This document shows, piece by piece, positions 4,797 to 32,000 of a DNA stretch of 32,000 bases; position 1 is the stretch's first letter; each line of letters begins with the position of its first letter. Where the stretch lies: the NCBI RefSeq assembly GCF_000007185.1, contig NC_003551.1, forward strand, positions 900,001 through 932,000, written 5' to 3'. The notes beneath the pieces were generated by a model that saw only the letters and a list, made by a program, of their open reading frames with translations, had not been told where the DNA came from and ran no database searches. A program made the translations under genes and the position numbers. The stretch is from Methanopyrus kandleri AV19. GTDB lineage: Archaea > JAADCQ01 > Methanopyri > Methanopyrales > Methanopyraceae.

Positions 4797-5510
4797 CTAC
4801 GTCCCGTGCCTCAGCCTCCAGTGTTCGAGTTCTAACCCCACGTCGGGGATCTCGTACCTCCCGTCGAGGGACCTCTTTCTAGAACGGATCACCTTGCGGA
4901 GGTGGATCGAGTAGTGGGCGGGCCATCCCCCGAGGGTCCTGATCAAGAACGACTCGAGTCGATCGGGGAGTTCCTCGAGTAGATCCCGGATTCTTGGTGA
5001 CTCGGAGGGTCTCGCGTTGAAGGCGAGGCTCAGTCCGCGGGCGAGCACCCTTCGAGCCCGTTTGTATGGCAAGTCCGAGACTTCGGCGAGTAGTGTCTTG
5101 AGGACCGAGCGGAGGTTCCTCATGAGGTGTCGCGCGAGCTCGAGGACCTCTCCCCGATCCAGTGAGACCAACCACTCGACGAACCGGACGCTCTCGTTCT
5201 CGGGCTTACCCAGGTAGAGCGTGCGCCCGTGCTTGAACCGCGAGTCCCTCCGCCAGCGGGCCACGTAGTACGGGCCGCACGTGCTCCCGCCCATCGTCCG
5301 GTACGTGACCTCGAGACTGGGCTTCTTCCCACGACGGTAAGCCTCTCGGAGTACTCGGAGTGCCCGGATCCTTTCCACGGGGTCCGAGGGTATCGGGACG
5401 TGAGCGTGCGACGTGATCAACCCCGGTACGTAATCCCCCGATGTGCCTCCGAGTTGTATGGAGGCAGGGGTGAAGCGGCACCTCAGGATATAAGTCTTGT
5501 CGTCTCCCAC
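4797..5510 (-). CDS. Orphan basic protein, possibly DNA-binding (island gene A).
   Basis: 237-aa GTG-started ORF rich in Arg/Lys. It carries a ..CGPYYVARWRRDSRFKHGRTLYLGK.. motif followed by a helical region. It is divergent from island gene B across an AT-rich spacer. No family recognised. Confidence 0.6.
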   Translation of the reverse strand: MGDDKTYILRCRFTPASIQLGGTSGDYVPGLITSHAHVPIPSDPVERIRALRVLREAYRRGKKPSLEVTYRTMGGSTCGPYYVARWRRDSRFKHGRTLYLGKPENESVRFVEWLVSLDRGEVLELARHLMRNLRSVLKTLLAEVSDLPYKRARRVLARGLSLAFNARPSESPRIRDLLEELPDRLESFLIRTLGGWPAHYSIHLRKVIRSRKRSLDGRYEIPDVGLELEHWRLRHGT

Positions 5511-5662
5511 GGAGGTTCCCGACTTCTGCCATACAACTTTACTCGCTCGGGAAAGCGACCGGTCGCGGCGGGGCGGTTTAGAACCCCCTCGGAAAAATTA
5601 CTGCGGGAAACGGTCCGGCAAGCGTCTCCCCCCTACGCGGACGGGAGCTCCACTCCACTTCG

Positions 5663-5678
5663 TTATAATTGATTTAAA
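5663..5678 (+). promoter_or_regulatory. TATA-like box upstream of island gene B.
   Basis: ttataattgatttaaa sits in the 230-bp AT-rich divergent spacer, about 63 nt before TTG 5741. A GGGGG run at 5728-5732 could act as the SD. Confidence 0.3.
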
Positions 5679-5740
5679 CTAGTCAGGAATCTCGACACCG
5701 GACTTTCTGTAAGGAAAATAGCACTTCGGGGGAAGAGTAA

Positions 5741-6190
5741 TTGAAAGCTCAAATACCGAAATTTTACGCCTTATGTTACCCACTAATGTATTCGATTTCG
5801 GGCTTTATTATAGCTACACTTACCGCCTTAAATGTGGCGATTCCGAGAGTCTTCTGGAGTATACTTTTAAGCTTATATGTGATATCACACGTCGGTATCG
5901 TTACGATAATAATCCTTATATCCAAGCTGATATCACCCAGTAGAAAGCGTAAGTTTTACAGAACACTGGCCTTTGTATATGCTGTACTGGGCTTCATTCC
6001 ACCCTTCGCCTGGCTCCTCGGCGGGTTCGCCTGCCACCGGATTAACCTGGATCTCCGCGAGCGAGGTTGCGCATCGGAGCGACACACGCCCAGGTACGCC
6101 GTACTGACGATCTTGACCCTCGGACTCTACCAGTCCTACTGGTGGTACGTAACCACCGAGGACGTCAACCGCTGCCTCCGACGCGAGTAA
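5741..6190 (+). CDS. Small ~4-TM membrane protein with a DUF4234-like C-terminal helix (island gene B).
   Basis: Hydrophobic segments FIIATLTALNVAI, ILLSLYVISHVGIVTIIILI, LAFVYAVLGFIPPFAWLLGGF and AVLTILTLGLYQSYWWY. The last resembles the T-x-G-(I/L)-Y-x-x-Y-W-W-Y motif of DUF4234. TTG start; Met-16 (5786) is an alternative. Confidence 0.65.
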   Translation: MKAQIPKFYALCYPLMYSISGFIIATLTALNVAIPRVFWSILLSLYVISHVGIVTIIILISKLISPSRKRKFYRTLAFVYAVLGFIPPFAWLLGGFACHRINLDLRERGCASERHTPRYAVLTILTLGLYQSYWWYVTTEDVNRCLRRE

Positions 6191-6683
6191 GATGTTGGCT
6201 CGGTCGCGCCGACTCTTTCCCCGGACGATGGACCGTCGGGAGATCGTGGATAAGGCCTATCGCTGTTCCATACAATAGAAACTTCGGACACAGTTGCGGA
6301 GGGTCGACGTGGACTGTCGTCGAGTCACCGGCTTCGAGTTCTACTCGTCGATGAGCTCACACCGCGTCTTCCAGTTTCGTTCCCTTACTGAGAAGGTCGC
6401 GCTCCCACGACCTCACGTCCGATACACGTTCCGCCCCGGGACACGTCCCGTACGGGGGAGTGTCACCCGCCTCGATGAGCGTCGGTCGGACGGAACACGT
6501 ACCCCCGGTTTCCACGATCCACCCGTTCGGTCGTACTGTCTACCGCGGGCTGACATTCTCATTGTAACGTTAACGATTCGACCGTTACTTTTCATCGGAA
6601 GGGAAACTCTTTTTACCCTTCGAACGGTGGGGCGACGTGCGAACCACTCGGCGGCTAGCCCCCTTCCCACTGGGGGGAGGCAG

Positions 6684-8201
6684 GTGAGCCGTCGGGTGGT
6701 CACCATCCCGGCGCTGATCGTACTCTTCACGGTCTTGGGACCCGTCGCGGCCGGTCCCGTGAACCTGTCCCAGACCAGCGGTGGAGAGCGCGTTATCGTC
6801 GCCTTCAACCCCGATGACCCGAACGCGTGGTCCGCAGTCCATCGACACCCTGTAGGACTCGAGCGCGGACCCTGGGCCGGCAACTTCTACGACGCGCGCT
6901 GTTTCCCGAACGAGGTTACTACGCACGGTACCAAGTTCGTCTTCGAGAAATCCGGTGGGCTAGTGTACGGACTGAAGGTAGAACCCGGTGATTCGATCAC
7001 CCTACCCGAACCCGCGAGCGTGGTGTCCGTCGCGTACGCGGCCGTATGCTGGTGGGAAAACGGACAACCCTTCAAGCGCGTCACGCTGATAGTGGAAGAC
7101 TCACACGGTCGTCAAGCCACCACCAGTCTAACCCTCGCGGACTGGTGCGCCCGCGCGTTCTCACCACACGCCCCAGACCACAACTTCCTCGTTTGCGAGT
7201 TCGACCACCGGCTGAGCGTCGAGGAGCGGAAGATACGCTTCTTCATCATTCCCATAGGGATCACCTGGAAGTGGCGCGTTGCAGGTCTGAAGTGCGGCGT
7301 ATGGGCCTTCCGGTTGAGCGCGAGCGAGCTGGGCCTCCGTGACATCACGAGGATCGAGTTCCGATACGGAGATGGGCACCTGTACATCCTCGCAGTCACC
7401 ATCACCCCGACCGGACCGTTCGACGACATCGTGGGCGGGCCGAACTGCTCGGGTACCACGGTCGGCCCGGACGGCATGGACGAGGTGGGCTCGTGCTACT
7501 GGGAGGGTGAGTGGCCGGCGAGGTTCGGCCACACGACCGTGACCGCGAACGGCGTGCCCTTCCTGATCCCACCCGCGAGCGGCCCGAACGCGCTCCTGGC
7601 GAACGGGCGACTGGTCGAGCTCCCGCGACCTGCTCGCACGGTCTGGTTCCTCTACGCGGCCACGAACTGGTGGTTCGGGGATAAGCCGTACGGACCCGTG
7701 GACCTCGTCGTGGTGGACGATCGGGGTAGGACCGTCACCGCGCGCGTGCTCCTGGTGGACTGGTGTGCGCACGACGTAGTTCCCAACAACATCGAGGTCC
7801 TGGCGTTCAACCACCGCGCGATCCCAGGTGGCCTACAGTCCATACACTGTGGCGTGTGGGCGTTCGAGCTCGATGCGGGCCAGCTCGGTCTCCCGAACAT
7901 CAAGGCCGTGTACTTCCCGAGCATGGGGCGGCGGAAGGTCTGGATCCTCGGCGCCACCCTGGACGGTCAGCCCGTCGGTCTAGGGGAGCTCAGGCCCCAC
8001 AGGATCTCACACCCATGGTCCGGGTTCAAGAGGGGTGTCGTGTACCCGGGCGGCGAGACCCTGGACGGGACCTTCCTACTACCCTCGGAATGTAGAAAGG
8101 TACAGAGGACGCCGATCGAGGGCCTAGCGGACGGTAACGCCGAGCGGCCTCTCGAACTCGAGGACCGAGGACGGGAGCGTCATCTACGTACCCGTGGGTA
8201 A
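6684..8201 (+). CDS. Secreted orphan protein with two copies of a Cys/Trp-rich domain (island gene C).
   Basis: GTG 6684 follows GGGGGGAGG (6672-6680) and opens a signal-peptide-like MSRRVVTIPALIVLFTVLGPVAAGP. The track start 6294 would add 130 Arg-rich, non-protein-like residues. The two internal paralogous domains lie at about 6879-7409 and 7494-7961. Confidence 0.75.
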   Translation: MSRRVVTIPALIVLFTVLGPVAAGPVNLSQTSGGERVIVAFNPDDPNAWSAVHRHPVGLERGPWAGNFYDARCFPNEVTTHGTKFVFEKSGGLVYGLKVEPGDSITLPEPASVVSVAYAAVCWWENGQPFKRVTLIVEDSHGRQATTSLTLADWCARAFSPHAPDHNFLVCEFDHRLSVEERKIRFFIIPIGITWKWRVAGLKCGVWAFRLSASELGLRDITRIEFRYGDGHLYILAVTITPTGPFDDIVGGPNCSGTTVGPDGMDEVGSCYWEGEWPARFGHTTVTANGVPFLIPPASGPNALLANGRLVELPRPARTVWFLYAATNWWFGDKPYGPVDLVVVDDRGRTVTARVLLVDWCAHDVVPNNIEVLAFNHRAIPGGLQSIHCGVWAFELDAGQLGLPNIKAVYFPSMGRRKVWILGATLDGQPVGLGELRPHRISHPWSGFKRGVVYPGGETLDGTFLLPSECRKVQRTPIEGLADGNAERPLELEDRGRERHLRTRG

Positions 8202-10293
8202 CGATATCGTCCCGATCGAGCTCCATACGCGCGCTTTCGACGCGGTTGGAACCCGAATAATCCTGCCCGAGGATAAGCACGTGACTGCCGTGTACGTCCT
8301 CTACGCGGCGACCTGCTGGTGGGACAAGGACGGCAACCCCGTGGACGCCGTTCCCATGACGGTGTGTTACGACGACGGCAGCGCGTACTCGACCTCGGTG
8401 GGAATCATCGACTGGTGCGCGACGGATCCCCGCGCGTACGACGACGAGAAGCGCAGGGTCGCCGCCGCCTGTGCCGTCCTACCCCAGCTCGAGGCCCACT
8501 GGGTGCGGGGAGAACCGCTGGTCTACCAAACACCCACCTTGGTCTTCCCCAAGCGCGTGTTCGCGGACGGGCGGGAGGAGCCGAACACGAAGCGTCCGAT
8601 CCTGTGGCTGCTCAAGCTCGTGTTCCCACCCGATAAACGACCGACCTGGATCGAGTTCGGGTATCACCCGGGTCACCTCTGGGTTCTAGCGATCACCGTG
8701 CGCACGACGGACGGGAAGTACTACGCGTTGGACAAGGACGGTCGCAGGGACCTCGGCGAGCCAGAGCAAAAGGTCGTCCTGGAACCTAACGGTGGCGAAC
8801 TACTTACCGCAGACACCAGCGGTTCGCTCTTTGGGACTTCCGTCAAGGTGACCGCGGAATGGTGCTGGCCGAAGAACGCACAGGTTGAAGCTCTGAATCT
8901 CAAGTTCGAGTGGCCTTTGACAACGACCGCCCTAGGCAGTGCCTTGTCGGTGACCGTCCGCGTACCGTCGGGTCATCTACTCCGCGACGCTATCCCAACT
9001 CCCGATGACTGGTACCTTAAATGGCTAAGGGACCAATTGAGGGATGAGATAATCAGATCGGCCGATAACGAGCTCCGCTCGCTGTCCCTTTCTGAGGAGG
9101 AAAAGGAGATCGCACGCCGCTGCATCGAGTATAGCGCCAACTTGACCGCCAACACGGCCCGGGGTGACGCGTTCGCCGCCCTCACCCTCGTGGCGCTGTA
9201 CGACCGGCTGGCCTCGCGGATCGCGGAGAAGCTCGGCGTCCACGTTTATCGAGCCGTCCCAGCGTACGTGACCGTCCTGACCGCCTGGCGGGCCGATCTT
9301 TGGGCAATCCTCGAACACGTAAACGAGCGGATATCCAAGCACTCGAAAGTGTTAACGTCGTTAGCGCTTCCGAAGGGATACGACACCCTCAGGCACATTG
9401 CCTTCACGCAGTTCCTAATCTATCAACCCACCCTGGGTCTGGAAGTGTACGGACCATCCCTCGAGGCCCGAGCCGTCAACGCGGTACTCTCCCTACTACT
9501 CCCGGGTCTCGAGCAGACGATCCTCGAGATCGGCAGGGGAGCCTCGGTAGCCGAAGGAGATCGGGTCGATGTCGATTGGCAGGAAGTCCGGGACAAGCTG
9601 GGGAACAATCTGAGAGAAATCGGGATCAAGGATCCCGAAGGTACCGCGCAGGAGATCGTCGAGGCCTTAAAGTACCTGACCGAGTTAGTGAAGTACGAGG
9701 ACATGGACGAGCGGCTGAAGTCCGCGGGCGTTCAGAGGTACGTCGATCCCTTCCTCGAACGCGTTCCTGTTATCTTCAACCGCACCCCTAGCCTCGAGGC
9801 GGCGGTACTATCTTACACGGACGTGGCCACGTGGACGACCACGATCTACACGCTCTTCCCCGTTCCGAGCAAAGGTGCGAGTACTCCCTCCGGTTGCTTC
9901 TGCGGTCCAATGACCGATAACCTGAAGAGGTTCTGGAATAGCTTGGCTGACAGCATCTTATACTTCCTAGCTTACCACGCCCTAGGAAACGCCGCTATTT
10001 CATTAGCAATTTCGCTTCTCATTGGCGGTGCAATAGGAGAAATAGCAGCCGGCGTGCTGACGCCTGTCATTGTAGCGGCAATTAAGGCCGGGTACTTTAA
10101 CGATTGGAGTGACTGGAACAAGCTAAAAATGTTCGCAAATGAGACTGCGAGCACTGCCCCCGCCTCCTTTACCGCAAAACTGCAGTGGGCCATCCACTGT
10201 TATGGGGGAGGTAGGGCGAAAGCCATAGCGACGACGGTCTCTTTCGCTTTTGCTTACCTATCGAGCGTTTGTACCGGGGCGAAACTGCCGTAG
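8194..10293 (+). CDS. Orphan protein with a third copy of the Cys/Trp-rich domain, a beta region, a long helical region and C-terminal TM helices (island gene D).
   Basis: 699-aa ORF whose GTG overlaps the gene C stop by 8 nt. Residues 1-170 align to the gene C repeats (YAATCWW, DWCA, W(V/I)LA-x-T). Hydrophobic helices lie at aa ~586-632 (nt 9949-10089) and ~676-693. No signal peptide and no good SD. Confidence 0.75.
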   Translation: MGNDIVPIELHTRAFDAVGTRIILPEDKHVTAVYVLYAATCWWDKDGNPVDAVPMTVCYDDGSAYSTSVGIIDWCATDPRAYDDEKRRVAAACAVLPQLEAHWVRGEPLVYQTPTLVFPKRVFADGREEPNTKRPILWLLKLVFPPDKRPTWIEFGYHPGHLWVLAITVRTTDGKYYALDKDGRRDLGEPEQKVVLEPNGGELLTADTSGSLFGTSVKVTAEWCWPKNAQVEALNLKFEWPLTTTALGSALSVTVRVPSGHLLRDAIPTPDDWYLKWLRDQLRDEIIRSADNELRSLSLSEEEKEIARRCIEYSANLTANTARGDAFAALTLVALYDRLASRIAEKLGVHVYRAVPAYVTVLTAWRADLWAILEHVNERISKHSKVLTSLALPKGYDTLRHIAFTQFLIYQPTLGLEVYGPSLEARAVNAVLSLLLPGLEQTILEIGRGASVAEGDRVDVDWQEVRDKLGNNLREIGIKDPEGTAQEIVEALKYLTELVKYEDMDERLKSAGVQRYVDPFLERVPVIFNRTPSLEAAVLSYTDVATWTTTIYTLFPVPSKGASTPSGCFCGPMTDNLKRFWNSLADSILYFLAYHALGNAAISLAISLLIGGAIGEIAAGVLTPVIVAAIKAGYFNDWSDWNKLKMFANETASTAPASFTAKLQWAIHCYGGGRAKAIATTVSFAFAYLSSVCTGAKLP

Positions 10294-10304
10294 GGGGCTC
10301 TCGG

Positions 10305-11270
10305 GTGGGTGATCCTTGGGAGGAGTTGGAACGCTTCTCAGACCCGGAATTACTCGAATTCTCCAAGCGCCTCGACGTCGAACTCTCCGGAGAAGAGTTG
10401 AAAGCCACTAAAAGGCGGGTTGAGCACGTTGAGTCACTGAAAATTAAGTGTATAATAGTCATTCCGATACTCGCTCTTGTAGGGTTAGCTATAAATGGTA
10501 AAATGCTTTCCATCCTCGCCAGCATTTATTATGAGTATCCTGCTTACGCGCTAACGCACGCCGCAGCAGTCCTAGCCTGGGATGTCGCCGTTATCTACAT
10601 GCTCCGACCGGGGTTATACAGGAAGGAAAAGCGCGCGCTCGAGCTCGCCCTACGTGTCAAAAAGCCCGTGCTCGCATATTTTTCACTTTACCACCCCTTG
10701 ACGGCGCCATTGGCTGGGTTTATCATACTGATATTCTCCTCGTACAAGCCATTACATATCCTATATAAGAACCCTAAAGGAGCTATAATAATGGTGATAG
10801 CGTATCATGTTCAGATATTTATACCGTTAATATCATATCTTGTACTTAGACTAACAAGAACCCCTGTAATACTATCATACAGCTTGATAGTGACTAAATT
10901 TGCAGTTGGACGACCGGTGGCCGTCGAGAAACTCTGGCAAGAGGCTCGCGAATATCGACCGTTAACGTTACCCCGAGTAGCGTTCATCGGGGTCTCCCTC
11001 GCGTCGACCATAGGCATGCTCCTACTCATAGGCTTGGTTAGATTGCTTCACATCGAGTACTCTACCAAGGGTATAGAAACGATCGCCCGAATGGCTCCAT
11101 TAGTAACGTTAGGAGTGACTCCAATAGTCACTGTCAAAGCGCGTAACTTACTCGCTAGGGTACCACCGACGACAATCGCAGAGGGAATCTTGACAGCCCT
11201 CAACGTACTGGCCGCGTTCACGTATACCATCCCCTTTTTCGTGATTCTACTGTATTATTGCCTCCCGTGA
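10305..11270 (+). CDS. Polytopic (~8 TM) orphan membrane protein, strongly AT-rich (island gene E).
   Basis: GTG 10305 sits 7 nt after AGGGGG. The N-terminus VGDPWEELERFSDPELLEF is soluble and helical, followed by repeated hydrophobic helices. Hand GC counts are 35% (10741-10800) and 28% (10801-10860). Confidence 0.7.
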   Translation: MGDPWEELERFSDPELLEFSKRLDVELSGEELKATKRRVEHVESLKIKCIIVIPILALVGLAINGKMLSILASIYYEYPAYALTHAAAVLAWDVAVIYMLRPGLYRKEKRALELALRVKKPVLAYFSLYHPLTAPLAGFIILIFSSYKPLHILYKNPKGAIIMVIAYHVQIFIPLISYLVLRLTRTPVILSYSLIVTKFAVGRPVAVEKLWQEAREYRPLTLPRVAFIGVSLASTIGMLLLIGLVRLLHIEYSTKGIETIARMAPLVTLGVTPIVTVKARNLLARVPPTTIAEGILTALNVLAAFTYTIPFFVILLYYCLP

Positions 11271-11319
11271 AGTTAATACTGGAGACTTCATCACAGTGGA
11301 CCAACCCCGTGTAACCCGA

Positions 11320-11400
11320 GTGGGTGATCTTGGGAGGAGTTGGAGCGTTCTTCCGACCCGGAACTCCGATCCCCACGCCGACGTCTGAGCGGCATCCGGT
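11320..11400 (+). pseudogene. Decayed duplicate of the 5' end of island gene E.
   Basis: 11320-11363 matches 10305-10349 at 39 of 45 positions with a 1-nt deletion (gtgggtgatc-ttgggaggagttgga..gacccggaa). The deletion shifts the frame and a TGA follows at 11386-11388. Weaker similarity continues to ..gacgtc. Confidence 0.6.
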
Positions 11401-11452
11401 GGATCGGAACCGCGCGTCAACCGAACGGTGTCCGCCAGGAATCCCTCAACGT

Positions 11453-11840
11453 TCGGTAAGAATGTTTATGCATCAATTACCACAAATACTCTTACTAGTA
11501 TCACACTATTTATGTATTGTCTACTGGTGATCATCCGATAATAGTAATACAATCGTTCAGGTTTGGTGGAGAGTGTGAAGGACGTTAAAGTGGGGGAATC
11601 AGTGTATCCGTAGCCCAGCCCGTTCAACACCAGTTATAACCCCGAACGTGAGGGAACGCGTTCCCGTAGGAACGGGCGGGGAGAGCCCACCGCGATGTCC
11701 GTACTCGGTAAGAACGTTCACCCACTATCCATCGGAAGTTGTATTGCTGATATCACATTATCTACGAATCGTCTACGTATGACTATTCGACGATGGTAAT
11801 ACGATCGTTCAAAATTAGCGGCGGGTACGAGGGAGGTTAA
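11453..11840. repeat. Two degenerate direct repeat units of 136 nt with a 252-bp period.
   Basis: 11453-11588 and 11705-11840 align without gaps at 91 of 136 positions by hand count. The best-conserved cores are tcggtaagaa, tatcaca-tat and cga-(t/c)a(a/g)t-gtaatac-atcgttca. Confidence 0.8.
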
Positions 11841-11950
11841 CCCTGAGAACGCGTACCGGTGAATTAACCGGTTCGATCCCTGTCTTGACGTGCTCCTACG
11901 GCGCGTCTCATGTCGTGATTATCGATGGGAGATCCCGGAGGCCGGCGCGG

Positions 11951-12499: not shown

Positions 12500-12954
12500 G
12501 CGATCCGCCCCCGGGCCTCGGCAACCCCGTCGTCTCCTCACATCTCGGCTGGCACGGTGGTCCCCATCGGCCTCGGGCCCCGTCGTACTCGTCAGCGGGT
12601 TTCCTCGGCAGGGACAATGCTCGTCACCGGCCCGGACGCGCCCGGTGATCGGGCGCGCCCTCGAGACGACGTTCTCGCCGGCCCGGTTGGGGGACGGCGG
12701 GTCGCCCTTCCCCGGGTTAGGGGACGCCCGTCGGCGGTCCTTCCCGGGTGTGCCCGGCGGCTTGCCCGCCCCCTCATCCCGCCCGGAGCGGGCCGTCGGG
12801 GACGGCCTCGACCGGTGTGACCGGGCTACCGACGGGCCGGATCACCGGGGGCGGCGGGGGAGGCCGCCCGATCCTGACCGGCCGTACTCCCGAACCGGTG
12901 AACGGCCTTAAACCGTGTTCGGTCCGCGCGCTCCCCGTCCGGGGGAGTGATCGG
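12500..12954. other. Extremely GC-rich divergent intergenic block; candidate structured RNA or leader.
   Basis: Hand GC counts per 60-nt line across 12541-12900 are 72, 75, 73, 80, 82 and 77%. Track ORFs here are Arg/Pro/Gly junk. The block holds an 8-bp all-GC hairpin (12637-12657), two tandem related hairpins (12690-12717 and 12720-12749), and a hairpin ccgaaccggt / accgtgttcgg near 12891-12923. Confidence 0.35.
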
Positions 12955-29482: not shown

Positions 29483-30169
29483 CTCCCTGACGACGTCCAG
29501 TAGCTCCCGTGGCCTGTCGATTTCGAAGTCCGGAACATCGTCGTCGTTTCTCGGCTCCATATCCTGGTATTTGCCCCTCCGGATCCTCACCGTTACCATC
29601 CCCGCGCGGTTCGCCCCCCTGATGTCCTTGTCCAATCGGTCTCCCACGTACACGGCCTCCTCCGGTTTGACTCCCAATCTGCGCGCCGCTTCGATGAAGA
29701 TCTTCGGGTTGGGCTTCTCCACGCCGATTTCCTCGGAGATCACCACCTCGTGGAAGAAGTGGTGAATACCCAATCGGATCAGCTTCTCCCACTGCTTCAC
29801 CGCTAGCCCGCTCGTGACCGCTCCCAGCTTGAATCCCATTTCCCGCAGCTGCATCAGTGTCGGGATCACGTCCGGGTAGGGCTTCAAGTAGGCGAACTTG
29901 GTGTCGTGGTATGCCACTACGGCCGCCGCGACCAGCTTCGGTTCCGGATCCGCTCCTATCCTTCTGAGCAACAGGTCGAAATGTCTGGGATGGTTCGAAC
30001 CGTACTCCTTTACCACCTCCTGCAGCTCCCGATACAGCTCCTCTTCCGACAGATCCGTTTCTAAACCCGCCTCGATCATAGCGCGGATAGCGTTCCTACG
30101 CGCTTCCTCCGCCAGCTTGGAGGACGGGTACAGTGTGTCGTCCACATCGAACAGTACGGCTTTGATCAT
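29468..30169 (-). CDS. HAD-superfamily hydrolase.
   Basis: MIKAVLFDVDDTLY (DxDxT motif I), ..AVTSG.. (motif II), ..YVGDRLDKDI.. (motif IV). Start moved to Met-28 of the track ORF. Confidence 0.85.
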   Translation of the reverse strand: MIKAVLFDVDDTLYPSSKLAEEARRNAIRAMIEAGLETDLSEEELYRELQEVVKEYGSNHPRHFDLLLRRIGADPEPKLVAAAVVAYHDTKFAYLKPYPDVIPTLMQLREMGFKLGAVTSGLAVKQWEKLIRLGIHHFFHEVVISEEIGVEKPNPKIFIEAARRLGVKPEEAVYVGDRLDKDIRGANRAGMVTVRIRRGKYQDMEPRNDDDVPDFEIDRPRELLDVVRELAKD

Positions 30170-30926
30170 GGGGGGACTCCCCACGCTTCGCATCGAGCCG
30201 GTTCCGCTGGAGAGGAAGGTACGACCCGGAGACGACCTCGCGGAGCTCATCGCGGAGTCCGCGGAGCTCGAGGAGGGGGACGTCCTCGCGATCGCTCACA
30301 CGGTAGTATCTAAGGCCGAGGGGGCCCTAATTAGTCTCGACGAGATCGAGCCCAGTCCCTTCGCTAAGACCCTCGCCGAGCGGACTGGTAAAGATCCGCG
30401 TGTGGTCGAGGTGATCCTTCGGGAAGCGGAGTCCATCGTGCGGGTCGGTCCGGACTTCATCATCACGGAAGTGCGAGGAGGGATGGTCTGCGCCAACGCA
30501 GGCGTCGACGAATCGAACGCACCGCCCGGGTACGTGATCGTCCTGCCCGAGGATCCCGATCGCAGCGCCCGAGAACTCCGTCGGCGTCTCCGCGAACTCG
30601 TCGGAGTTGACGTAGGAGTCATCATCACCGACACTCAAGGTCGACCTTTCAGGGAAGGGGTTGTCGGCGTAGCGATCGGGGCCTCCGGAGTGCCCGTACT
30701 GGCCGACCGGCGTGGGGACCGCGATCTCTACGGTCGCGAGCTGAAAATCACGATCGTAGCGCTCGGTGACCTCCTAGCCTCCGCGGCGGAGCTCGTGATG
30801 GGGCAGGCCGACGAGGGTACGCCTGCGGTCATCTTCCGTGGGCTCAAGCCCGAGCTTGAGCGGTTCGAAGGTCCCCGGAAGGCTCGAGCGATTATCCGCT
30901 CTCCAAGTAGGGATATATTCAGATGA
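30168..30926 (+). CDS. cofE: Coenzyme F420:L-glutamate ligase.
   Basis: ..IAHTVVSKAEG.., ..MVCANAGVDESNAPPGYVIVLPEDPD.., ..VIITDTQGRPFREGVVGVAIG.. are CofE hallmarks. ATG 30168 is Met-91 of the track ORF; the upstream 90 residues are Ser-rich junk antisense to the HAD gene. Confidence 0.9.
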   Translation: MGGLPTLRIEPVPLERKVRPGDDLAELIAESAELEEGDVLAIAHTVVSKAEGALISLDEIEPSPFAKTLAERTGKDPRVVEVILREAESIVRVGPDFIITEVRGGMVCANAGVDESNAPPGYVIVLPEDPDRSARELRRRLRELVGVDVGVIITDTQGRPFREGVVGVAIGASGVPVLADRRGDRDLYGRELKITIVALGDLLASAAELVMGQADEGTPAVIFRGLKPELERFEGPRKARAIIRSPSRDIFR

Positions 30927-31023
30927 ACAAACATTTGGCCCACACAAACCTCACGTGGGTTATCTCACCAAAAAGTATTTAACTAATTGTGGTTTTCAGT
31001 GAGTTCTGGATAGTACGATGATA

Positions 31024-31058
31024 CCCCGGGTAGCTCGGGCCGAAGCCCGGGTCCGGGG
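31024..31058 (+). other. GC-rich extended hairpin in an AT-rich leader.
   Basis: ccccggg-tagct-cgggc-cgaa-gcccg-ggt-ccgggg. The outer arms ccccgg/ccgggg and inner arms cgggc/gcccg are complementary. It lies ~60 nt upstream of the last gene's SD. Confidence 0.4.
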
Positions 31059-31141
31059 TTGATGTAAGTCGGGGGGTAGGTAGGAGGTTCAGGATAAAAG
31101 GAAACACCGAGCTACTAACTTTAACAGTAATCTTCACACTA

Positions 31142-32000
31142 ATGACACTGTGTGCCAACAGTGCACAGGCTAACATTACAGTACATATCACGGTGTACAA
31201 CGATTCGGACGCATGGGATCAATCACATATCCAAGCATATGATGAGTTCCTAACGCGGTGTGAGCAAAACGGTGTCAAGGTGGCGGTGTTCCACTACCCA
31301 CACTGTGAAAACACCGCCTCCGGGATCACCGACGTGATTAAAGGACATCTCGGTCCCAACGGGGCGATCGAGTTCGTCGGCGTACACGGCACTTCGCACT
31401 CGATCGCCGGACTCCCGGAGGACGTCCAGAAGATGGAAATCCAGTACTGCTGGGAGTTCCTGGAGGATCAAGGGCTCGGACCCTATCTACGCAAGGACAT
31501 AATCTCCCCGTCGCCCGAGTGGATCATGGACGACACGTTCGTCAAGGTCTGTCAGGAACTCGGGACCCGAGAGGTGGTCTGCGGCTACAGGACGTGGGAG
31601 CTCGACCCCGATAAGCACCCGCGGTGGTACGGTAAAGACTACGACTACATCGCGGATATCATGGTGATCAAGAAGCTGAATACTAACGGGTACACCGTGT
31701 ACGTCTGTCCGGTGATCGACTTCGAGGAGCTCGTAGGTGACGTAGTGGATGAACTGGGCGTCTACAATCTCAGTAACCTTAAGACCATGCTGCGGAAGGC
31801 CATCGAAACGCTGCGCAATACTGGCGCGATTCGCGACGGTAGCCACCTTATGATGTGGGTACTCATCCACCCGTGGCAGCTAACCGAAGATATACGCGTC
31901 GGCAGGAATGACAACACAAGACCAGGTATGGAATTGATCGAAGAGTTCATACAGTGGGTCAAGAAAGGTCAGCTGGACTATGAGGTGAATGGGATTAACA
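31142..32000 (+). CDS. Partial CDS running off the right edge: secreted protein, possibly DUF2334 / polysaccharide-deacetylase-like.
   Basis: Absent from the track because it has no stop in the window. Hand translation gives MTLCANSAQANITVHITVYNDSDAWDQSHIQAYDEFLTRCEQNGVKVAVFHYPH...VGVHGTSHS...WVLIHPWQL... The frame is open from 31034, and the signal-peptide h-region begins upstream of ATG 31142, so a start at ATA 31094 after GGAGG 31083-87 is possible. The function guess is weak. Confidence 0.6.
   Translation, partial: MTLCANSAQANITVHITVYNDSDAWDQSHIQAYDEFLTRCEQNGVKVAVFHYPHCENTASGITDVIKGHLGPNGAIEFVGVHGTSHSIAGLPEDVQKMEIQYCWEFLEDQGLGPYLRKDIISPSPEWIMDDTFVKVCQELGTREVVCGYRTWELDPDKHPRWYGKDYDYIADIMVIKKLNTNGYTVYVCPVIDFEELVGDVVDELGVYNLSNLKTMLRKAIETLRNTGAIRDGSHLMMWVLIHPWQLTEDIRVGRNDNTRPGMELIEEFIQWVKKGQLDYEVNGIN

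Follow-up and report, generated by a model that had tools for sequence, protein, structure and literature searches.

What is the compositionally uneven block of about 7 kb at 4797–11950 of a 32-kb stretch of the Methanopyrus kandleri AV19 chromosome (NC_003551.1, positions 900,001–932,000; hereafter the window, whose own numbering is used throughout), and did it come from elsewhere? The block holds five genes, A to E, between an ATP-binding cassette (ABC) exporter and a macro-domain gene, and was originally predicted to be a horizontally acquired or fast-evolving cell-surface system made of orphan genes. Our analyses favour, at a probability of roughly 0.55, a strain-variable Methanopyrus surface display cassette, putative in function and partly inactivated in AV19, of which the block is one copy of several. 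The five open reading frames (ORFs) lie where they had been predicted, and the features of the locus are as follows (GC, G+C fraction).

4797–5420, minus strand: gene A, DUF1678/MK-1 family; product likely 207 aa, ORF reaching 5510
5649–5863, no strand: AT-rich segment of 215 bp (GC 0.40), covering the first ~41 codons of B and the DNA ahead of them
5741–6190, plus strand: gene B, DUF4234/MK-4 family; ORF of 149 aa, in GenBank 103 aa from 5879
6684–8201, plus strand: gene C, N-terminal half of the MK-5 protein; signal-peptide-like N-terminus, repeat 1 at ~6849–7460, repeat 2 at ~7467–8078
7352–10123, no strand: stretch of 2772 bp deleted in a second M. kandleri strain, reaching from the last part of repeat 1 almost to the stop of D; clean junctions (L005, L006)
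8160–8173, plus strand: frameshift site, GAGGACC GAGGACG; removal of 1 nt (or of a 7-nt repeat) restores a single ORF
8161–10293, plus strand: gene D, remainder of the MK-5 protein (C-terminal half); GTG start of the ORF at 8194, homologous sequence already from 8161
~8160–8820, plus strand: repeat 3 of MK-5 (in D)
~8821–9960, plus strand: mainly helical region (in D)
~9967–10290, plus strand: 2–3 C-terminal transmembrane helices (in D)
10305–11270, plus strand: gene E, multi-pass membrane protein; likely GTG start at 10305, ORF may begin at 10269
11317–11387, plus strand: relic of the 5′ end of a second E copy; 85% nucleotide identity to 10302–10349
11400–11900, no strand: non-coding, patchily AT-rich DNA; two diverged ~250-nt tandem units

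The comparison covered two M. kandleri strains and one further lineage (species 2). C and D, previously taken for separate genes, are one gene by origin. The protein P0002 (1158 aa; Joint Genome Institute metagenome contig of a second Methanopyri lineage) spans both, and was the sole relative of D outside M. kandleri among 5.8 billion proteins searched. C is 55% identical to residues 18 to ~490 of this fused homologue, and homology in the D frame extends 5′ of its GTG, where "EDGSVIYVPVGNDIVPIELH" aligns with "KDGEIIWIPAGDEVVPVELH". With one base removed at 8166, the product is 1202 aa long and aligns to P0002 in a single alignment, at 47% identity from residue 20 to the end. Judged from these alignments, C and D are a single ancestral gene broken by a frameshift at 8160–8173. 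The split form (505 aa plus 699 aa) is present in six independently assembled datasets and is therefore a real mutation, not an assembly error of 2002. Since homology to P0002 begins at the signal-peptide-like segment, the start of C is placed at ~6684 instead of the 6294 first proposed; 6294–6683 is probably untranslated. D by itself has no signal peptide, and its N-terminal repeat would remain in the cytoplasm in AV19, so the split is probably inactivating, and the cassette is probably at least partly inactive in this strain. D is also related to an AAM01541-type paralogue (E-values 2e-26 and 4e-16) and to the MK-5 protein of locus L013 (28.6% identity over 616 aa, E-value 1e-47).

Four of the five genes, described earlier as orphans of no recognised family, belong to the named families MK-1, MK-4 and MK-5, all of them already in the 2002 GenBank record, and E alone is without a family name. 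By exact-sequence look-up in the AV19 GenBank record, the 207-aa product of A is AAM02158.1 ("MK-1 family"); it matches Pfam PF07913 (DUF1678) at 338.2 bits (cutoff 25, E-value 1.9e-101) over profile positions 1–195 of 196. B is AAM02159.1 ("MK-4 family"), with 3–4 hydrophobic helices, and matches PF14018 (DUF4234) at 33.8 bits (cutoff 25.3, E-value 3.6e-8) at profile positions 4–35 of 70 only, in its C-terminus, bearing out the DUF4234-like helix that had been noticed there. C is AAM02160.1 ("secreted protein, contains repeats, MK-5 family"), D is AAM02161.1 ("MK-5 family") and E is AAM02162.1 ("Predicted membrane protein"). MK-5 is a GenBank-annotated family with no Pfam model; C, D and E had no match in Pfam, NCBIfam, PHROGs or PADLOC, and A to E together matched DUF1678 and DUF4234 alone. 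Scans with Rfam and tRNA models were negative throughout the window, the DUF1678 profile had no significant match among PDB sequences, a literature search returned no paper on DUF1678, and the SNP6/KOL6 comparative paper does not address the locus. Between the end of B and the corrected start of C, ~490 nt (6191–6683) contain no convincing ORF and no Rfam match, are 96.7% identical between the two M. kandleri strains, and could be a long leader or regulatory region.

Once repaired, the MK-5 protein consists of a hydrophobic N-terminus, three ~210-aa repeats, a mainly helical region and 2–3 C-terminal transmembrane helices; the earlier reading of C as a signal-peptide-like N-terminus plus two repeats, and of D as a third repeat, helical region and C-terminal transmembrane helices, was right. 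The three repeats match one another at pairwise E-values of 4e-24 to 9e-10 and have in common the motifs LYAATxWW and DWCA. An exhaustive HMMER search of 1.84 billion representatives matched 16 proteins, which include the M. kandleri MK-5 paralogues and giant proteins of 3631 and 3465 aa with several repeats from Methanopyri metagenome-assembled genomes (MAGs); weak repeat matches were seen in a Thermoprotei MAG and in Dictyobacter. Full-length relatives of C/D were found in Methanopyri only, a scan with CD gave no match in a contig collection from which the M. kandleri genome itself seems not to be retrievable, and a metagenome scan returned only contigs of species 2. The gene for the 3631-aa protein (L024, 3437–16896) lies in a housekeeping neighbourhood beside a class IV aminotransferase and a MurJ/Wzx-type flippase, with no AT-rich gene after it; its product is possibly a major envelope protein, and the adjacent flippase fits an envelope role.

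A model of repeat 2, built by AlphaFold2 from a 20-sequence repeat alignment, is a beta-sandwich (predicted local distance difference test, pLDDT, 82; predicted template modelling score 0.82). Its only significant PDB neighbours are AziU3/AziU2 (Foldseek E-value 2e-6, probability 1.0, template modelling score 0.58–0.62), and the repeat sequence profile separately matches AziU2/Azi28 at an E-value of 2.2e-7 over ~140 residues (hmmsearch); a Foldseek search against viral structures gave no significant match. The MK-5 repeat thus shares an AziU2/AziU3-like fold with a detectable sequence relation, which is homology of fold and not evidence of the same function. AziU3/U2 is described as an aziridine synthase (PMC12559475) that shares a rare fold with CtaG and CcbD (PMC12865890); the enzyme is a heterodimer, works in the cytoplasm and belongs to a biosynthetic cluster (PMC12559475, PMC12865890). 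It had been claimed that the locus has no described counterpart; the naming of MK-1, MK-4 and MK-5 in 2002 and this relation of the MK-5 repeat speak otherwise.

Gene E starts 12 nt past the stop of D and encodes 6–8 hydrophobic helices, in keeping with the ~8 predicted. It had no match at E-value ≤ 1 in Pfam or NCBIfam, the E-family profile had no significant match among PDB sequences, and a profile of E with its positional counterparts recovers Methanopyrus-type proteins only. Archaeosortase/exosortase, Wzy-like and CPBP-like identities were tried for E and rejected: it matches no sortase model in Pfam or NCBIfam and no Wzy or CPBP model, and has no conserved catalytic motif of any of them. 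In species 2 (L001/L002), a fused CD gene of GC 0.63 is followed by tandem membrane genes, E1 (333 aa) and E2 (331 aa), which can be aligned gap-free along 314 aa (54% identity) and show weak collinear similarity to E (~22% identity). Their GC is 0.33–0.34 and their GC at third codon positions (GC3) is 0.35–0.38, against a GC3 of 0.86 for the neighbouring Amt transporter. A tandem pair, Ea/Eb, at 53–55% identity to M. kandleri E, occupies a 1.8-kb contig (L007, GCA_039833645.1) that is labelled Thermococcus sp. and is probably mis-binned.

Downstream of E, AV19 carries what is left of a second copy. The relic at 11317–11387 is 90% identical in nucleotides to the E start of the second strain (L005); at the protein level the relic gives 64% over 22 aa. 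The tandem units after it, whose cores (11499–11588 and 11751–11840) are 71% identical, have no match in the other loci compared or in Rfam and tRNA models, and 11400–11900 gives a weak collinear tblastn match to E residues 2–119 (E-value 0.03); this DNA is probably the decayed body of the second E copy. The decayed duplicates predicted for the right flank are thus present, as the E 5′ copy (85%) and the internal duplication (71%), and the past cassette duplication proposed with them agrees with the tandem E1/E2 and Ea/Eb elsewhere and the relic here.

The arrangement recurs at paralogous MK-5 loci, of which three were compared: L010 in an AV19-type assembly, and L013 and L015 in MAG GCA_053992195.1. 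At each, the MK-5 gene is followed within 7–35 nt by a gene for 273–283 aa with 5–6 transmembrane helices (GC 0.42–0.44, GC3 0.45–0.53). DUF1678 copies, 83–88% identical to A, lie near these MK-5 genes, and a DUF4234-like small membrane protein is encoded at L010 and L015 as well. The order of the cassette is a DUF1678/MK-1 gene and a DUF4234/MK-4 gene, then MK-5, then an AT-rich gene in what we call the slot. An AT-rich multi-pass membrane gene (GC3 0.35–0.53) thus stands directly 3′ of MK-5 at four MK-5 loci in two lineages, and in both lineages the GC of the slot gene is 20–30 points below that of its neighbours; a positional E allele on a fragment that lacks its MK-5 gene has a GC3 of 0.66. 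The 273–283-aa proteins are mutually related (E-values 1e-4 to 1e-12), and the slot family tracks the MK-5 subfamily, D/P0002-type genes being paired with E-type genes and L013/L015-type genes with the other family. The original prediction named AT-rich membrane genes common across the genome as a finding that would speak against an island, and in spirit this is what we see, such genes recurring beside MK-5 paralogues elsewhere.

These loci are prone to rearrangement. The AV19-type paralogue AAM01541 (566 aa) is 5′-truncated and corresponds to the 3′ part of a gene for 972 aa in another strain. Its breakpoint adjoins a DUF1678 gene (L010 9595–11701 compared with L015 1380–10919), which suggests that DUF1678 copies, at 83–88% identity among themselves, mark or mediate rearrangements. 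A contig-collection scan with DUF1678 found two MAG loci only. Just 3′ of one MK-5 cassette (L013, 12649–13455) lies a HEPN/nucleotidyltransferase pair of toxin-antitoxin type.

Comparison with the second M. kandleri strain (L005, MAG GCA_053992195.1), which is collinear with the window at 90–95% identity, showed how variable the locus is. In addition to the 2.8-kb deletion in C/D, the segment 5649–5863, which holds the beginning of B, is missing from this strain, again at a clean junction, and an independent read set (L006) has junctions identical to those of L005. Identity between the strains is 96% at the 3′ end of D, 80% over the first ~100 nt of E and 46–73% in the body of E, for which dN (nonsynonymous substitutions per site) is 0.31, dS (synonymous) 1.30 and dN/dS 0.24. 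The ABC genes and C repeat 1 have a dS of 0.05–0.18 (C repeat 1 dN/dS 0.19), and the 283-aa slot gene at another locus has a dS of 0.32 beside neighbours at 0.04–0.08. A shows the same pattern: against its positional counterpart (4797–5510 compared with L005 7492–8109) dS is 0.95, with 0.05–0.11 for the adjacent ABC genes, which points to gene conversion or exchange among DUF1678 paralogues. Because dS lies far above that of the flanks, the slot and DUF1678 genes are old alleles or exchanged paralogues and not simply genes with fast clocks; E alleles keep long ORFs at dN/dS 0.15–0.24, and by such ratios the slot and DUF1678 genes are still under purifying selection. The fast-evolving half of the original prediction is therefore supported, by the deletion, by the identity of 46–73% in E and by its dS of 1.30 against 0.05–0.18 in the flanks.

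A predicted secreted, membrane-anchored repeat protein encoded together with membrane proteins agrees with the envelope module first proposed, and on the surface display reading the parts would work as follows. After its export the intact MK-5 protein would stay anchored in the membrane through its C-terminal helices, with its beta-sandwich repeats as putative outward-facing binding modules, for which the cell wall, glycans and other cells are candidate ligands. The slot protein would be co-expressed and act with the MK-5 membrane module in anchoring or assembly. Recombination between tandem copies, within the conserved sequence at their 5′ end, may reshuffle slot alleles and copies. Their low GC at all codon positions could come from fast turnover combined with an AT bias of mutation, or from an AT-rich Methanopyrus gene pool that supplies them, and not from a foreign origin of the locus in its entirety. 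The second E copy of AV19 would then have decayed to the relic at 11317–11900.

Several observations weigh against this account. The E family and the 273–283-aa family have no detectable homology (hhalign E-value 0.61), and the argument for a role common to both slot families is one of position. The nearest solved relatives of the repeat are cytoplasmic biosynthetic enzymes and not surface proteins. The AlphaFold2 model of the D C-terminal region, with its helical and transmembrane parts, reached a pLDDT of 45 and was left out of the fold search; the profile of this region had no significant match among PDB sequences. Finally, of four MK-5 copies examined at the M. kandleri level, three carry damage in one or other of the two strains, so the cassette may be dispensable.

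The same variability could instead mean that MK-5 and the slot gene are a matched pair whose diversity is actively maintained, for self/non-self recognition, effector-immunity or virus-receptor/exclusion functions, the low GC then pointing to an AT-rich mobile pool within Methanopyrus. We regard this as unlikely; if true, it would be the first such case for a hyperthermophilic methanogen. A related proposal, in our view also improbable, is an effector-immunity or recognition pair in which MK-5 would deliver a C-terminal module that acts on membranes, the producer would be shielded by the variable membrane protein encoded after it, and orphan copies would accumulate downstream. A large predicted secreted protein followed at once by a small variable membrane-protein gene is what such a system would have, and so are two unrelated families in one slot, tandem copies with a 5′ relic (11317–11387), deeply diverged alleles at dN/dS 0.15–0.24 and the hydrophobic helices of the MK-5 C-terminus. 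However, the divergence starts ~100 nt inside E while the MK-5 C-terminus is 96% identical, with no co-variation; divergence among MK-5 paralogues is spread evenly and marks off no variable tip; searches of A to E for toxin, PADLOC and PHROG matches found none; and slot proteins of 273–333 aa with 5–8 transmembrane helices are large for immunity proteins.

With the 32-kb window itself as the baseline, scanned in 120-nt windows, mean GC is 0.625 (standard deviation 0.066), and values below 0.45 are confined to 5641–6020, 10381–10570, 10651–10940, 11401–11620, 11691–11850 and, outside the locus, 30871–31250. The hand counts of the original prediction were reproduced (5761–5820, 0.350; 10741–10800, 0.350; 10801–10860, 0.283; 12541–12900, 0.764), and the anomaly is real, but patchy, amounting to ~2 kb and not 7 kb: the 5′ half of B, E and the non-coding DNA 3′ of E. 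GC3 is 0.81 in A, 0.80 in C and 0.73 in D, compared with 0.53 in E (overall GC 0.49), and within B it rises from 0.41 in the 5′ part to 0.76 in the 3′ part. As GC3 itself is low, the low GC of E and 5′ B is not an amino-acid effect; nor, as had been argued, is it explained by transmembrane content, since the CaCA antiporter and the ABC permease of the window have a GC3 of 0.90 and 0.94 respectively. The sole further AT-rich patch, at 30871–31250, appears to be intergenic, 3′ of an ORF (29898–30926) whose product looks CofE-like by sequence, and GC is ~0.53 from this patch to the end of the window.

That the whole 7 kb is a recent horizontal island, received as a single piece from an AT-rich foreign donor, is accordingly doubtful. 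The idea draws on the low GC3 of E and 5′ B, on the want of E homologues outside Methanopyrus and on the differing neighbours of the CD-E pair, which are Amt/P-II and AIRS genes in species 2 and the ABC exporter and macro-domain gene in AV19. These different neighbours mean that the cassette or its surroundings moved within the lineage. Against an outside origin, composition is atypical in five patches and not throughout, A, C and D having host-like GC3, and the full-length relatives are all from Methanopyri; every relative found for the E family and for DUF1678 comes from an assembly of Methanopyrus or related Methanopyri. The CD-E pair is also present in a lineage 47% identical, so the pairing predates a split of that depth. 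In the second M. kandleri strain the locus lies at the same site, with internal deletions and not a clean absence of the whole. A to E encode no integrase or transposase domain, no tRNA was found in the window and no boundary repeats were found, and IMG/VR scans with E, DUF1678 and CD returned no relatives. The claim of horizontal acquisition is thus not borne out, and the evidence tested speaks against a foreign origin for the entire locus; in a narrower form of the idea, an AT-rich plasmid or virus of Methanopyrus may have supplied just the slot gene.

We also give a low probability to the locus being functionless, decaying DNA whose AT-richness is mutational drift of pseudogenes in a hyperthermophile. 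Much at the locus looks like decay: the CD frameshift, the 2.8-kb deletion with truncated B and truncated E in the other strain, the relics 3′ of E, the 5′-truncated MK-5 paralogue, and a non-coding relic that is itself patchily AT-rich. Yet E alleles keep their long ORFs at dN/dS 0.15–0.24, C repeat 1 has a dN/dS of 0.19, the 314-aa alignment of E1 with E2 (54% identity) is free of gaps, and CD, E1 and E2 are intact in species 2. Decay may nonetheless describe AV19's own copy. Very improbable is programmed +1 ribosomal frameshifting at GAC-CGA-GGA as a source of full-length MK-5 in AV19: both halves keep long ORFs, the split is stable across independent datasets, and the shift falls within a short direct repeat with the C stop overlapping a GTG in the D frame, but we found no recognisable slippery motif or stimulatory structure, the fused species-2 form needs no shift ancestrally, and other MK-5 copies are plainly damaged.

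The present analysis turns five "hypothetical" genes into a defined cassette that is recurrent and variable between strains. Methanopyrus lives close to the highest temperatures that organisms are known to tolerate, and to our knowledge almost nothing has been established about its surface proteins, viruses or population biology. A low-GC slot kept under purifying selection offers a tractable way to study how a GC-rich hyperthermophile keeps its base composition and which forces diversify its surface.

How does the cassette compare with known systems? MK-1, MK-4 and MK-5 were catalogued in 2002 as uncharacterised M. kandleri-specific families, and A to D (AAM02158–AAM02161) are themselves proteins so named in the AV19 GenBank record; their paralogues share the gene order. 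The origin of C and D as a single gene, the relation of the MK-5 repeat to AziU2, the recurring MK-1/MK-5/AT-rich slot/MK-4 cassette and its hypervariability between strains appear to be new, the cassette architecture, C/D split, AziU2 link and AT-rich variable slot being apparently undescribed so far. With AziU2/AziU3 of Streptomyces sahachiroi (PDB 7wuw, 8gs1) the MK-5 repeat shares fold and sequence profile; MK-5 differs in carrying three tandem copies, at ~15% identity, in a predicted exported protein with a signal peptide and membrane anchor, and no biosynthetic genes lie nearby.

Polymorphic toxin/immunity loci, such as contact-dependent inhibition, Rhs and pore-forming colicins with membrane immunity proteins, resemble the cassette in having a large secreted protein, an adjacent variable membrane protein, downstream remnants and non-homologous replacement in the slot, whereas the cassette has no variable C-terminal tip, no toxin domain was found in it, and MK-5 looks membrane-anchored and not released. 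Strain-variable envelope islands (O-antigen/wzy, S-layer or surface-glycoprotein islands) often have a lower GC than their genome. The cassette is like them in its predicted surface product, presence/absence and allelic variation, diverged alleles under purifying selection, low GC and divergent polytopic genes, and unlike them in having no glycosyltransferase or sugar-pathway genes and in confining its variable part to one slot after a conserved surface-protein gene, an architecture repeated at several loci in one genome. By kind, the locus belongs with the strain-variable cell-envelope loci of many prokaryotes.

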